Sequence record: NZ_CP095281.1
Source of the DNA: a plasmid
Direction: 5' to 3' (one strand)
DNA length: 64,000 nt
Below, one piece after another: positions 1 to 9,000 of this stretch. Made by a program: the position numbers. Numbering within the stretch: position 1 is the first letter of the stretch; every line of letters starts with the position of its first letter.

Positions 1-3000
1 ATGAGGCATCTTTTCTGGCGTCTTAACTTTCTCCTTCTCTCCGGGGCAACAAACAGCGCCCAGATGTACCATGAGGCCGCCGCTCTTTCCTCCGAGCTGG
101 ATACTCGTTGGTCTTACCGCTCCAAAGAGCTTATGACGCTCTACAGCAAGGCGAAATCCTATGAGGCTGGGGAACGTGTCGAGTTCGGCGGAAAGTCGTT
201 TGCACCGCTATACACGCCCAAAAACGACACGCTGATCAACCTATTCCAGATCTCACAGCAAGAACAAGAGCAACTGAAGACGATTATCAGCACTGACGAG
301 GCTCAGAAGCGCCGCAGAGAGCGCGATAGACTGCGTGATGAAGAACGTCGCCGCGCCGCTGGCCAGCTTGAGCGTGAAGCCTATGAAGCCAACTCATTGA
401 GCAGGCAAAAGCCCTGGGAAGCTATGGGCATGAGCCGGGCTAAATGGTATCGCCTGGGCAAGCCTTCACCTCAACAAAACAGTGAGACAAGTCCCTCCCC
501 TATTACTAATGGCGAAGCCTCAGCGGTTGCCCTTCAGGCGGCCAGGTGTAAAGCCGTTTAGATGGCTATTTCAAAGTGAGTGAGATTTCGTAACGGATGG
601 CAGCCCTAGAGGCTGCTTTCTTTTGAGGGGTTAGCAGGCGTATAGCCATGCTGGATCTCAGTCTATCACTACCTGCTTAATATTCCACCTTTAGATCCGG
701 CAGCAGTTCGACCAGGTGGCCAACTTACCAGGCACCGGCAGCAGCTCGACCGGGTGGCCAAGTTCAGATCTGGACGCCAGAAGGAAATCAACCAGGTGGC
801 CAACTTACCAGGCACCGGCAGCAGCTCGACCAGGTGGCCAAGTTCAGATCTGGACGCCAGAAGGAAATCAACCAGGTGGCCAACTCACCAGGCATCGGCA
901 GCAGCTCGACCAGGTGGCCCATTTCGTACGTACGAAATCAGGCGACGCTATGCGAAATCTTGGCGGCAATCCCCCGCGACTACGTGATTTTTTTAACGTA
1001 GAGCGCGCTTTTTCTTGCCATAGTAGGCCATTTTGGCCTATAATCTTAATTAAGAAGACCGGGCACCCGCCACGGTCAATACCGGAGAACTCCGATGATC
1101 CACACAGCTAACCGCACCTTTCACCAACTCTATCGAGAATGGATACGCGAACGCCGCGAGCATATGCACAACGTTTTGACCTGGGAGCGTGATCGTTACG
1201 GTGCTCGCCTCGTCGGTCTGTTTTATCGTTACTGCAAGGTGGCCAACCCCTTTCCCCGTTGCACTCTGAATACTCGGATCAACTACCGCGCCCATGCGGT
1301 GAATCTGCCAGATTGGCCAGCCCGCAGCCTGGAGCTGAATAAAATGTGGCTCAGTTGGAGAGAAAAAAAGTAGGCCGATTTGGCCTATTTTTTATTGTAC
1401 CCGCTTGACACAATAGGCCAAAATGGCCTATTATATATCTCAGAAGGCCGGGCACCCGCCACGGTCAATACCGGAGAACTCCGATGATGCAAACAGAACT
1501 TAATCCCCTGATCTGCTCCCTGGTCGCCACCCCTCGCCGTATGGCTGCAATGCCCCGCTATGTAGGCCGTTTCTATGTGGTTTTCGAGTCGATGCTTTAC
1601 CAGCAAATGAAAGGGCTCTGCCGCGAGTATCGCGGGGCTTATTGGCTTATGTGGGAGCTGTCGAACGGCGGCTTTTATATGGCTCCTGGGCGTCGTGATG
1701 AAATGCTGAACATCGAGGCCATGAACTACTTTAGTGGCCAAATGAGCGCCGATGCTGCCGGGATTACCGCTTGCCTCTACCTCTATAGCCATCTGTCATT
1801 TCACACAGAAGGCGCTGACCAGGAGCGGTTTTCAAGGCTGTATCACAGCTTGCGGGATTGGGCTTGTGAGCATGACGAAAAAGAGGCCATCTTGGCCGCA
1901 ATAGACTAGCAACAGAAAGCCCCGGTGATGGCCGGGGCTCTTAAAGGAGGTGCATAGGTAGAAAAAGAAATGGTGCCCCTGGTATGGCTGCAACCAATCA
2001 CAGGGGCTTTCACCGGTCAATTTGAGGATAAACGCGATGAATACGGATATTGTATCACTTGCAAAACACATTGGCGACGCTCTGACGGCCCGCCGCCCCG
2101 TTCATATGCCGCGCATGAAGATGCGGGAGCTTGGCTTGCTCTTGATTGAACTGAAGGCGTATCGGGAGGCCGCCGCGACCGTTACCCATTGATAAAAAAG
2201 CCCCGGCATTGACCGGGGCTATTTGAGGATTTATCGCATGATTAGACCTGAAACGCTTAGGCCGTTCGCTGAAGATTGGCAGGCTCCAACCGCCGATGAA
2301 ATCAAAGAGGTGTTGGAGCTGATTAGGCAACGAAAAGGGCTTAGTAAGCCTCTCAGTGGCGTTGATGTCGCTGATCTCGTTGGTTTGCCTGGTGAGAGAG
2401 GCAGCGGAAAGGGAACCCGAACCTTCAGGCGTTGGGTGAGCAAAACCAACCCTAGCCCTATTGCTTATGGTGCCTGGTCTATCTTGGCCCACCTGGCAGG
2501 TTTCGGGGCTATATGGGACGCTGACCGGGATTGAAACCATGACCGAACATAAGGCCGAACGTGCTCCCTGGGGAGACTTCCCGGCAGTAGTGAGGAACGG
2601 CGATCTAAAGGATCTCTCTAAAGAACCTGAATACGAAGCCGCCAAACATGGCGACCACAAGGCGATGAGCTATAAGCGCATGAAGCCGGCCGAGGACGAA
2701 TTGCATTGCGAGATCAAGGCGCTGCTTGATCGCGCCAAGGCTACCGACGACCAGGAGCGTAACGAGCCGGAGCTGGACATTCCTGCCGAGATTTCTCGCC
2801 GCGAGAAGCGCCTGGAGGCGATCCAGGCGGCAAAGGCGCGCCTGGAAGCGCGCCAGCGTGAAGCGGACCAGGCCCGGGGGCGCAGCGAAGACGATGGCCG
2901 CCGGCCTCGCCATCCGGATGGCTCGGACAAGGGCGGTGGCTCGTACAAACGCGAGTTTGGTGTGCCGGATGACCGTGATCAGGAAAGCTTCACCGATCCG

Positions 3001-6000: not shown

Positions 6001-9000
6001 GGGCATCTGCGGCAGGTACTTGATGTCGATGTGCACAAAGCCCGGCTCGTAGTCCTTGAAGGTCTTTTTCGTGGCGGGCGCAGTGCCTTCCTGCTCGACC
6101 AGGTTACGTAGATCCGAGACACCGTGGCGGCGCAGGCAACGTCCCAGGCCGGCACGCGAGACGGCTGGATTGATGAACTCGCGCGTGACCGCCAGCAGGT
6201 CGTCCGTGGGCAGCAGCAACGTCTTGCGCAGCTCCACCACGATGAGCTCCTGCTCGGGCGTGAGCGTCGTGTACATCTTGTTCGGCGCATGCGACTTGTC
6301 TTCAGGAGACTCGCGGTTTTGCCACTTTCGGATGGTTTGGCGGGTGACGTTGTACATCCTGGCCAGTTCGGCCTGCGGGAGCGTCGAGTTCCTGATTTCC
6401 TCACGGATCAGGTGGGTAGTACGGGCTTGGCTGTGCAGTGCCTGGGTCATCGAGTTGCCAGTGAAGAGTCGGATTGGAACAGTGTACGCAAAACGTGTCT
6501 GGCCTTGAAGAGCGGCCAGCTACGCATGGGTACATGATCCCACGAGTCCAGACACCTATAAAAATAGGCGTATCACGAGGCCCTTTCGTCTTCAAGAATT
6601 TTATAAACCGTGGAGCGGGCAATACTGAGCTGATGAGCAATTTCCGTTGCACCAGTGCCCTTCTGATGAAGCGTCAGCACGACGTTCCTGTCCACGGTAC
6701 GCCTGCGGCCAAATTTGATTCCTTTCAGCTTTGCTTCCTGTCGGCCCTCATTCGTGCGCTCTAGGATCCTCCGGCGTTCAGCTTGTGCCACAGCCGACAG
6801 GATGGTGACCACCATTTGCCCCATATCACCGTCGGTACTGATCCCGTCGTCAATAAACCGAACCGCGACACCCTGAGCATCAAACTCTTTTATCAGTTGG
6901 ATCATGTCGGCGGTGTCGCGGCCAAGACGGTCGAGCTTCTTCACCAGAATGACATCACCTTCCTCCACCTTCATCCTCAGCAAATCCAGCCCTTCCCGAT
7001 CTGTTGAACTGCCGGATGCCTTGTCGGTAAAGATGCGGTTAGCTTTTACCCCTGCATCTTTGAGCGCTCTGATCTGAATATCGAGGGACTGCTGGCTGGT
7101 TGAGACCCGCGCATAACCAAAAATTCGCATAAAATGTACCTTAAATCGAATATCAGACACGATGTGTCTATTATGCCAAAATGACGATTTAATGGACACT
7201 CAAACGAAGCCGTTTTACTATGTCTGATAATTTATGAATTGGTGGATAAATTTGCTTAGCGTACAGATCCGCCCCATTGGGCTTCAAACCCCACCGACAG
7301 TCGGTGACGTGGCACAGCTCACAATTCAGCCTCATTCAGGGTTCATCAGCTCCATTTGAAGTAATATGTCAGTCCCATAACGGAGGAATGCCATGAGAAA
7401 TGTAGCGCGGAAAGGGGACCCAACAAGCACGGGAGGGGTGATCCAGGATGGTGATGGCGGCTGGCTCACCGAAGGGGCGCCAACAACCTATATCGGGATG
7501 ATAGCGACCTGCCCAGCTTGCAAAGTCGGACAGGGCCCTATCGTCGCCGTCGGCCCCCGTTCCATCATCGGCCCGGGCGGGCCGGTCGCACTGCAGGGCG
7601 ATTATGTCGCTTGCGGCTGTCCGCCGATGAGCAACACCATACTCCCCGCCCAGGGGACGACAGTCGGCGACAACAAAGGGCCCCGGGCGAGAGCAGCCAG
7701 CGCCCCCGCAGAAACACCAGCACCAGCTCCCACCAGTTCGCCGGCGACCCCTCTTGTCCCGCTGATTGACCCCACGGAACATCGGATCGGCATCTTCTTC
7801 GATGGCACCCAGAACAACAGACACAACAGCGAGCTCAGGGCGCTGTGTGAAGAGGCAAGCGAGGTAGCCTGCAAATCCATAGAGAAGCTGATAGGCACTG
7901 AATCCTCATACGACGGCGGCCCAACCAACATTGCCCGGCTGCATCAAGCCTATACCGGCCCAGCAATCTACATCGAGGGGATCGGCACCAGTGCCGGCAA
8001 AGCCGACTCGAATTTAGACATGGCCTTCGGCACCGGCGCAACTGGCGTCATAGCCAGGTCAGAGGAAGGCTTGGCCAAGATCAGCACCATGATCGCCAGC
8101 CTACCCGCCGGCCCGGTATCTGTGGATGTCTTCGGCTTTAGCCGGGGCGCTGCAGCTGCGCGACATTTCGTGAACATCCTTCTGGAATTGAACCTGGGGC
8201 GCCAGGTGCACGTCGCATTCGTTGGCCTCTTCGATACCGTAGCAGCCATAGGCCTGGACGCCAGCAATGACGAGAATGCGCCAGTTCGCCTCTACATTGC
8301 TCCCGGGGCCGCGGAGAAGGTTGTCCAGCTCGCCGCCAAGGACGAGTACCGGCTCAATTTTGCGCTTAACTCCGTACAGCCAGACCACACGGAACTCCCG
8401 CTATTCGGTACTCATAGCGACGTTGGCGGCGGGTATCTAGACCAAGTTGAGAAGACGCCAATCATGCGCCCCTATGATGCCATCCTGAAATTTGGTGATG
8501 ACGCAGCCTATAAGAGATTCCAGGCTGCAGCCAACGCCAGGCTCCAGGAGGAAGCTATCCCCCTATACAAGGGATATGCGAAAGACAGCAGCCAGATAAA
8601 GCCGACCATCAGCTCTTTCTCCGTCGTATCCAAGAGCGACGCGCCAATGGTGGGCTATGTGGCCAACGCGATCATGACGCGCACGGTCAAACCTGAACTG
8701 CAGCTGCTCGCCGGCCACCTTATGCAGACTATCGCGCAGGAAAGCGGAGCTCCGCTCACCCCCCTGTCTGAGCCGGTTCCCGGGGCGCTGGCCTTCTTAT
8801 TCGACCAGTACTTGGGCCTGTGGCATGGAAGCGGTGACCTCAAACTGTCCAAGGAGCAAAACGAGATGCTGATGACGGAGTATGTTCACTGCTCCGATAA
8901 CTGGACGCCGCTCGGCCCCCTCTACGTGAACGCCCCCGCCCCTGGTAGGGTTCGTCGCATCTACCAGCAATCACCAGGGAAGTGACCTTATGAAGCGAAT

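Follow-up and report, generated by a model that had tools for sequence, protein, structure and literature searches.

The stretch of DNA analysed here, called the window below, comprises 64,000 nt of the plasmid sequence record NZ_CP095281.1. A resistance module with blaKPC-2 occupies positions 1-7235, and the backbone of a pAsa8-like MOBF conjugative Aeromonas plasmid lies to the right of 7235. The junction between them is located in res, the recombination site of transposon Tn3, beside the resolvase gene tnpR. We conclude that this right-hand junction was very probably formed by resolvase-mediated res × res recombination, in which the res of Tn3 recombined with the res-like core of a miniature Tn3-family element (TIME) resident on the backbone.

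The tnpR gene (6573-7130, minus strand) is that of Tn3, is intact and encodes 185 aa. It was the only serine recombinase gene found in the window by tblastn with TnpR and the pAsa5 recombinase as queries. The three subsites of res follow on the plus strand: site III of Tn3 (25 bp, 7135-7159), site II of Tn3 (34 bp, 7165-7198) and a hybrid site I (28 bp, 7221-7248). In Tn3, res consists of site III of 25 bp, a 5 bp gap, site II of 34 bp, a 22 bp gap and site I of 28 bp, 114 bp in total, and strand exchange takes place near the centre of site I (PMC2602789). The subsite sizes, the 5 and 22 bp gaps and the total length of 114 bp in the window are exactly those published. Within site I, positions 7221-7235 are Tn3 sequence, 7236-7248 belong to the resident TIME and the central AT is at 7234-7235.

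Identity to Tn3 stopped after ...AATTTAT at 7235, where the next base is G in the window and A in Tn3. The breakpoint AATTTAT/GAATTGG thus directly follows the central AT of site I. Beyond it, site I is not Tn3 and no tnpA follows; resident TIME sequence starts at 7236. As a control, 8/8 other fetched loci with the left half of Tn3 site I continued with AACATTTCG... into Tn3 tnpA, and the GAATTGG... continuation was present only in the window and in two draft loci, L006 and L008. An earlier sequence-only reading of this DNA had placed the end of Tn3 homology at AATTTAT/GAATTGG inside res site I. The quoted breakpoint stands, while the end coordinate given with it, 7216, is 19 bp short of 7235/7236. 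In the alignment to Tn3 res that it had proposed as a check, the subsites mapped exactly and Tn3 ended in the middle of site I, not in tnpA.

Relatives of the plasmid, both native and recombinant, were located via the PAAR gene at 7393-8985. Five of them carry the same Aeromonas backbone in unrecombined form, namely pAsa8 (L002), L005, L007, L009 and L010. From 7236 as far as the PAAR gene begins, none of the five differed from the window in the aligned stretch. The identical 530-aa PAAR/Tle1-like protein is encoded in L005, L007, L009 and L010, and the pAsa8 gene is about 85% identical. Left of 7236, each of the five has a site I of its own, TGTCTCTAATCT-TATG-AATTGGTGGATA, in register with site I of Tn3, and the sequence through the switch reads ...TGTGTCTCTAATCT-TATG-AATTGGTGGATA... 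in these relatives. This resident site I is 28 bp long with the 12-4-12 layout of that of Tn3 and an AT centre. Site II- and III-like sequences lie upstream of it, and their spacing equals that of Tn3 within one base. Tn3 res and the resident res region agree at about 65% of positions in a stretch of about 100 bp. Alignment of the TIME core with Tn3 res gave a Smith-Waterman score of 129, compared with 53 ± 9 for shuffled sequences (maximum 91 in 500).

The resident core lies in a 205 bp element with 38 bp Tn3-family inverted repeats at both ends, which is intact in L002, L005, L007, L009 and L010. Its left inverted repeat (IRL) reads GGGGTTTGAAGTCCAACGGAACGAAAACGTACGTTAGT and its right inverted repeat (IRR), on the other strand, GGGGTTTGAAGCCCAATGGGGCGGATCTGTACGCTAAG. 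IRL and IRR agree at 27/38 positions, and IRL agrees with the IRL of IS101 at 34/38 and with the Tn3 repeat at 28/38. The right part of the element (7236-7292, plus strand) is present in the window as the right half of site I, a 6 bp spacer and IRR at 7255-7292; the native backbone to its left, with a ParE toxin gene and an AbiTii-like gene, is absent. The element occurs with unrelated flanks in pAsa8-type plasmids, pAsa5, pAsa6 and pAsaXII. In CP110646 it is missing from the corresponding place in the backbone, and the match to the window begins only after 7292. No matching 5 bp direct repeats flanked the element in pAsa8, L007 or pAsaXII, where adjacent deletions may have erased them, and no resolvase gene was found beside it in the native plasmids. 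Judged by its sequence, the backbone partner is a TIME: it is shorter than 300 bp, has Tn3-family 38 bp inverted repeats, lacks a transposase and has copies in differing contexts. A multimer-resolution site and a relic of a full transposon were rejected, as both 38 bp repeats are present 205 bp apart and the unit is found in other contexts. IS101, the 209 bp element of pSC101, is the one TIME for which a functional res is known, resolved by gamma-delta resolvase (Ishizaki & Ohtsubo 1985, cited in PMC13367494).

Variants of the TIME were also observed. In pAsa5 (L004 3951-4126) and pAsa6 (L022 2427-2602), a 176 bp variant has lost the site III/II region by internal deletion, and its site I is centred on TT rather than AT; it is located close to a PAAR gene, in the opposite orientation. 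The 7.7 kb mobilizable plasmid pAsaXII (L003, NZ_MF621618.1) has two inverted copies, at 28-231 and about 3110-3315, around frmR-frmA-VOC-fghA. This arrangement resembles a TIME-COMP composite with formaldehyde detoxification genes and has no clean 5 bp direct repeats. The TT-centred variants (pAsa5, pAsaXII) are predicted to be incompatible partners, only AT-centred ones being usable. The AbiTii-like ORF (open reading frame) that precedes the TIME on its left is of full length in pAsa8 (L002 4947-5939), with its stop codon inside IRL, and is a stub ending at IRL in L007 (2940-3000), L009 and L010, which indicates an adjacent deletion reaching the end of the element.

The position of the switch was defined by differences between the two parents. 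Tn3 and the TIME differ at positions 11 and 16 of site I and have only TTAT in common between these positions. The window is of Tn3 type at position 11 and of TIME type at position 16, so the switch lies within TTAT at 7232-7235. The two res sites are collinear. An exchange between collinear sites that is confined to four bases, with the catalytic AT of both partners among them, indicates a serine resolvase event. That the junction was made by resolvase rather than by transposition or homologous recombination had been suggested from the breakpoint; the switch within TTAT with its catalytic AT and the recovery of a partner with a homologous site I support this.

The acting enzyme would most likely be the TnpR of Tn3, which is encoded intact next to the junction. 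In a first step, the module, with Tn3 tnpA still present, would have been joined to the TIME on one molecule via some cointegration. The two directly oriented res sites would then have been 'resolved', with loss of tnpA, the left half of the TIME and the intervening DNA. The outcome would be a single hybrid res beside tnpR and a module fixed on the backbone. This route of deletion in cis is favoured because the wild-type resolvase acts only on a pair of res sites in one supercoiled molecule. Wild-type Tn3 resolvase recombines res with res in one supercoiled molecule only and yields only resolution products (PMC2602789). A precedent in KPC plasmids is the fusion and resolution of pVir and pKPC plasmids, which was mapped to Tn3 res (PMC10714771).

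The plasmid and the hybrid junction were compared with other assemblies and with the published record. The junction was found in three assemblies: the window, L008 (the Ah2101 draft, 100% identical) and L006 (GCA_027705405.1, 99.5-99.9% identical). It was not found elsewhere in PLSDB, GTDB genomes or metagenomes, the two NCBI draft assemblies having been reached via the PAAR protein. Two contigs of the Ah2101 draft were 100% identical to the window, JALKAG010000064 over 7159-13381 and JALKAG010000051 over 52330-64000. The plasmid pAh2111-2-KPC, of 96,480 bp, with a backbone closest to pAsa8-b (CP039630), was described from A. hydrophila in Hangzhou in 2021 (PMC9304888). From the contig identity and this description, the window plasmid is almost certainly pAh2111-2-KPC. 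The contigs of L006 and L008 both start at window position 7159, exactly 77 nt before the crossover at 7235/7236. Contig starts at 77 nt fit branching of an assembly graph with k = 77 at the crossover, which suggests that a second copy of Tn3 res with a different right flank would exist in the L006 and L008 genomes, probably near rmtB/blaTEM-1.

Among other explanations, a direct intermolecular res fusion between a KPC donor plasmid (of the IncP-6/IncU type frequent in Aeromonas) and the backbone, with subsequent loss of most of the donor, is possible but doubtful. It would involve the same enzyme by another route. Identical modules on small IncU and Aeromonas plasmids (H1, H4, H7) are in line with such a fusion, as are the Tn3 res fusion and resolution reported for KPC plasmids (PMC10714771). 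However, the wild-type enzyme selects its sites in cis, the 96.5 kb plasmid is too small for a whole donor, so that further deletions would be needed anyway, and searches for a reciprocal junction gave none. A join made at TTAT by RecA-dependent or illegitimate recombination, with no resolvase involved, is improbable. Four identical bases are indeed present at the switch, and the likeness of the two res regions over about 100 bp also speaks for it, but four bases are far under the requirement of homologous recombination, and longer identical runs close by (CGATTT, GACAC, TGTCT) were left unused. Moreover, in each partner the switch falls on the catalytic centre of site I.

The authors of PMC9304888 speculated that 'a transposition event mediated by a Tn3-based transposon' accounts for the insertion in pAh2111-2-KPC, without mention of res. 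In that case 7235/7236 would be a transposon end. Although Tn3 sequence is part of the module and the backbone that carries it is native to Aeromonas, we consider Tn3-based transposition highly improbable. The junction lies within res, 105 bp from the start of tnpR, and not at a 38 bp inverted repeat. No tnpA was present in the 64 kb and no Tn3-family inverted repeat apart from IRR of the TIME. The right inverted repeat of Tn3 is missing, there is no target duplication, and what lies on the partner side is homologous to res and in register with it. For this junction, the evidence contradicts the transposition reading of PMC9304888. An assembly chimera is hardly credible: Tn3 sequence is repeated in these genomes and the breaks in the short-read contigs are 77 nt from the junction, but the independent short-read contigs L006 and L008 cross it into unique backbone and agree there with the window base for base.

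Several points weigh against res × res recombination by TnpR. That TnpR recombines the TIME site is argued from sequence, and the right half of the TIME site I (TATCCACCA, other strand) and the half-sites of its sites II and III match TGTCYNNTA poorly. The reciprocal junction, that is, the left half of the TIME followed by AACATTTCG, was not found in the window, PLSDB, GTDB genomes or JGI metagenomes; such a hybrid would read GGGGTTTGAAGTCC...TGTCTCTAATCTTAT/AACATTTCGTACGG, then Tn3/Tn2 tnpA. The window does not reach the left boundary of the module, which was likewise not found in these databases. Look-ups with dRepB and dblaTEM, the truncated products at that side and upstream of blaKPC, returned only Klebsiella and other contexts, these proteins being too common to be informative, and one with ParE yielded only a 95% cluster representative. 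Without the reciprocal product and the left boundary, the pathway cannot be reconstructed, and a join at 4 bp of microhomology is formally possible. The link to pAh2111-2-KPC, for its part, was made through the identity of the Ah2101 contigs and the description in the paper, not through an accession.

The module to the left of the junction is of a known kind. Its gene order was established from ORFs, family profile matches (Pfam, NCBIfam) and the RefSeq annotation of the identical region. All 7235 bp of positions 1-7235 aligned with 0 mismatches to the region around blaKPC-2 in pPUTH2 (IncU, K. pneumoniae, NZ_CP024709.1). With window 1-7300 as the query, at least 337 PLSDB plasmids covered at least 80% of it, many of them at 100% identity, and the carriers of the module belonged to Klebsiella, Escherichia, Enterobacter, Aeromonas, Proteus and others. 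The blaKPC-2 gene (3769-4650, minus strand) is complete (NF012141, 684.8 bits), and its 293-aa product is identical over the full length to the product of the coding sequence annotated as KPC-2, WP_004199234.1. The gene lies outside Tn4401, with no ISKpn7 upstream and no Tn4401 tnpA/tnpR; dblaTEM and ISKpn27 are located upstream and a truncated ISKpn6 downstream. NTEKPC-II elements are recognized by insertion of dblaTEM upstream of blaKPC (PMC10134989), and the window has blaTEM nt 292-923 at 5314-4683, separated by 94 bp from the start of blaKPC. By identity and gene order, 1-7235 is a copy of a widespread, published NTEKPC-II-type blaKPC-2 module; the same linear module has already been published (PMC4785139, PMC9304888).

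The sequence-only reading had proposed a non-Tn4401 context, the order of genes and truncations and the KPC-2 allele. The context, with dblaTEM and ISKpn27 upstream and truncated ISKpn6 downstream, is that of the published module, and order and truncations were confirmed by ORFs, family matches, annotation and the perfect match to pPUTH2. The allele check over the full ORF revealed no diagnostic difference from KPC-2, and the comparison with KPC plasmids that had been recommended for typing led to the pPUTH2 match and to the NTEKPC-II type. The spacer between dblaTEM and blaKPC was 94-95 bp in copies of the window type (L025, L026, L032; window 4651-4744) and about 206-221 bp in the remaining copies among L023-L032. 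This difference indicates that NTEKPC-II copies differ by a deletion just upstream of blaKPC.

Between blaKPC-2 and tnpR, the Tn3 sequence is interrupted and partly deleted. The blaTEM remnant (4683-5314, minus strand) comprises nt 292-923 counted from the ATG, i.e. codon 98 to the stop and 62 bp downstream, as determined by alignment, and covers positions 97-286 of the TEM profile. Codon 98 is fused to the promoter region of blaTEM just upstream of the ribosome-binding site, which forms part of the Tn3 tnpR-blaTEM intergenic sequence at 5315-5469 (minus strand). Tn3 sequence ends 62 bp past the blaTEM stop, and the Tn3 right inverted repeat is absent there. ISKpn27, named so in RefSeq, follows at 5476-6554 (minus strand, 1079 bp) with termini TGTCAAGAC... 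and ...GTCCAGACA. Its transposase ORF (5470-6450) matched NF033577 with 263.9 bits, above the cut-off of 224. A 6 bp duplication, CCTATA, is present at 5470-5475 and 6555-6560 around the element, and the outer flanks are contiguous Tn3. A DDE transposase, terminal inverted repeats and a short target duplication, the features looked for in a member of the IS481 family, are all present. Both the internal blaTEM deletion with fusion at codon 98 and the splitting of contiguous Tn3 between tnpR and blaTEM by an IS481-family element with CCTATA on both sides, as first read from the sequence, were thus reproduced by alignment and annotation. The module may be viewed as a Tn3 derivative in which ISKpn27 was inserted between tnpR and blaTEM and blaTEM was deleted internally. 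In this derivative, blaKPC-2, dISKpn6 and a korC-klcA-drepB plasmid fragment would occupy the former place of the Tn3 right end.

Downstream of blaKPC-2, the 5'-truncated ISKpn6 transposase gene (2539-3519, plus strand) retains 326 aa. It matched positions 148-345 of the 488 positions of an IS1182-family profile with 205.9 bits, below the cut-off of 270. A 326-aa DDE_Tnp_1 gene occupies the place of dISKpn6 in other contigs too. The blaKPC-proximal end of dISKpn6 lies somewhere between 3519 and 3768. The left end of the module, as far as visible, is a dRepB-like ORF of 186 aa (1-561, plus strand), at whose ATG the window begins. Its product had no family match in profile searches; it adjoins klcA-korC-blaKPC in thousands of contigs, and the name drepB was taken from PMC4785139. 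Three iteron-like 80 bp direct repeats follow at 697-936 (plus strand).

The genes of the korC-klcA fragment are all on the plus strand. The klcA antirestriction gene (1484-1909) matched PF03230 (E 9.5e-27). A 92-aa ORF (1095-1373), called orf6 in the first reading and annotated as hypothetical protein WP_013213990.1, lies between klcA and dRepB, and a separate small ORF of 51 aa (2037-2192, WP_013213988.1) lies between klcA and korC. The korC-like regulator gene (2238-2534) encodes 98 aa and is annotated 'transcriptional regulator' (WP_013213987.1); its product had no match in Pfam or NCBIfam, and the name korC is that of PMC4785139. Three TAGGCC-N5-GGCCTA palindromes resembling KorC operators were found, at 1024, 1371 and 1414 (n = 3), with 0 expected in shuffled sequences. 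The first (1024-1040) is enclosed by a promoter-like site, TTGCCA-18-TATAAT, at 1015-1044 and the third (1414-1430) by another, TTGACA-18-TATTAT, at 1405-1434. Thus two of the three are located between the -35 and -10 hexamers of promoter-like sites scoring 11/12, and the second (1371-1387) overlaps the stop codon of the ORF at 1095-1373. An identical 41 nt leader occurs at 1059-1099 and 1448-1488 and includes the start codons of the ORF at 1095 and of klcA. The palindromes and the leader shared by orf6 and klcA had both been noticed before, and both hold. It is plausible from this anatomy, with operator-like palindromes overlapping promoter-like sites and korC downstream on the same strand, that the fragment is under KorC control. 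Every copy of the module has this anatomy, not just the one in the window.

On the backbone side, a PAAR + Tle1-like (DUF2235) gene (7393-8985, plus strand) lies next to the junction. The region 7393-9880 contains this plasmid-borne phospholipase-effector gene followed by small ORFs. The ORFs at 8990-9295 and 9578-9895 are paralogues with 78% identity and may be immunity genes. The tandem arrays at 12490-13693 and 49154-50388 belong to one family of units of about 187-202 bp, which was also seen in L038 (1-3700), L002 and L034-L036. Such arrays are common to pAsa8-like plasmids and vary in copy number among relatives. Two other arrays were found: a 127 bp unit repeated 9.4 times at 25248-26444 (92% matches) and a 99 bp unit repeated 6 times at 51770-52364 (96% matches). 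The latter lies inside a 1264-aa ORF (51061-54855), the counterpart of the TraG-like gene in related plasmids. At about 27000-40000, the backbone is broken up by clustered Aeromonas insertion sequences, among them ISAs2, ISKpn3 and ISAeme17. The Ah2101 contig L038 reaches about 3.7 kb past the end of the window. Its terminal 70 nt (L038 1-70), ACTCATGATG...GGGACTTGTTCGCACC, are foreign to related plasmids, lie just after traC and mark the edge of another inserted element.

The mode of movement of NTEKPC elements is still unclear (PMC10134989), because most of them lack paired inverted repeats. The resistance module is already known and the plasmid itself has been published. What is new is the recognition of an IS101-like TIME as the recombination partner, which documents that the junction originated from res × res recombination; the mechanism is known and the instance is new. 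The window provides a clean case, at the sequence level, of a blaKPC-2 module fixed on a native Aeromonas conjugative plasmid by res recombination and not by transposition, with a miniature Tn3-family element as the partner, and it corrects the published interpretation of pAh2111-2-KPC. The practical consequence is modest: an additional route and a class of target sites for tracing the spread of carbapenemases between Enterobacterales and environmental Aeromonas. A speculative and rather unlikely extension is that IS101-like TIMEs on Aeromonas plasmids serve as res 'landing pads', at which a Tn3-type resolvase captures or anchors Tn3-linked modules without transposition ends. If so, NTEKPC elements would gain a site-specific, transposase-independent way into new backbones, and the hybrid res would stay a hot spot for later plasmid fusions.

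Compared with known systems, the module itself is ordinary. Its linear order, dTn3-ISKpn27-dblaTEM-blaKPC-2-dISKpn6-korC-orf6-klcA-drepB, matches the 'core blaKPC-2 platform' of p10265-KPC (PMC4785139). The window shares its order, truncations, ISKpn27 insertion point and duplication with pPUTH2 and other NTEKPC-II copies. It differs from the other NTEKPC-II copies examined at the right end: in those, res runs on into a Tn3 tnpA that is complete or truncated further on, whereas in the window Tn3 stops in the middle of site I. In RK2 (IncP-1), the kilC and kilE loci are regulated by KorC through the operator TAGGGCATAATGCCCTA. The palindromes in the window have 17 bp and the same shape, overlap the -10 region of promoters upstream of klcA and are followed by a regulator gene downstream. 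However, their predicted half-site is TAGGCC and that of RK2 is TAGGGC, and the KorC-like protein lacks a family match.

The Aeromonas TIME resembles IS101 in size (205 and 209 bp), in its IRL (34/38), in a core related to Tn3-subgroup res, in an AT-centred site I and in having no coding capacity. In contrast, the cores of the two elements cannot be aligned with each other beyond chance (Smith-Waterman score 71, z 1.5), and the Aeromonas TIME is known from Aeromonas plasmids. With the resolution system of Tn3 and gamma-delta, the window has in common an intact tnpR, canonical sites III and II, a canonical left half of site I and an exchange at the central AT. Unlike in that system, the right half of site I is foreign, transposase and Tn3 inverted repeats are absent, and two different elements, rather than two copies of a transposon, were joined. 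Hybrids among Tn1, Tn2 and Tn3 and mosaics of the Tn21 subgroup have reportedly arisen by recombination at res, as Partridge and Hall in 2005 and Bailey et al. in 2011 are said to have described. As in these hybrids and in the pVir/pKPC fusion, parentage in the window switches exactly at res. The window differs from those hybrids in that the partner is miniature and non-autonomous, and in that the outcome anchors a non-transposable resistance module to the backbone.

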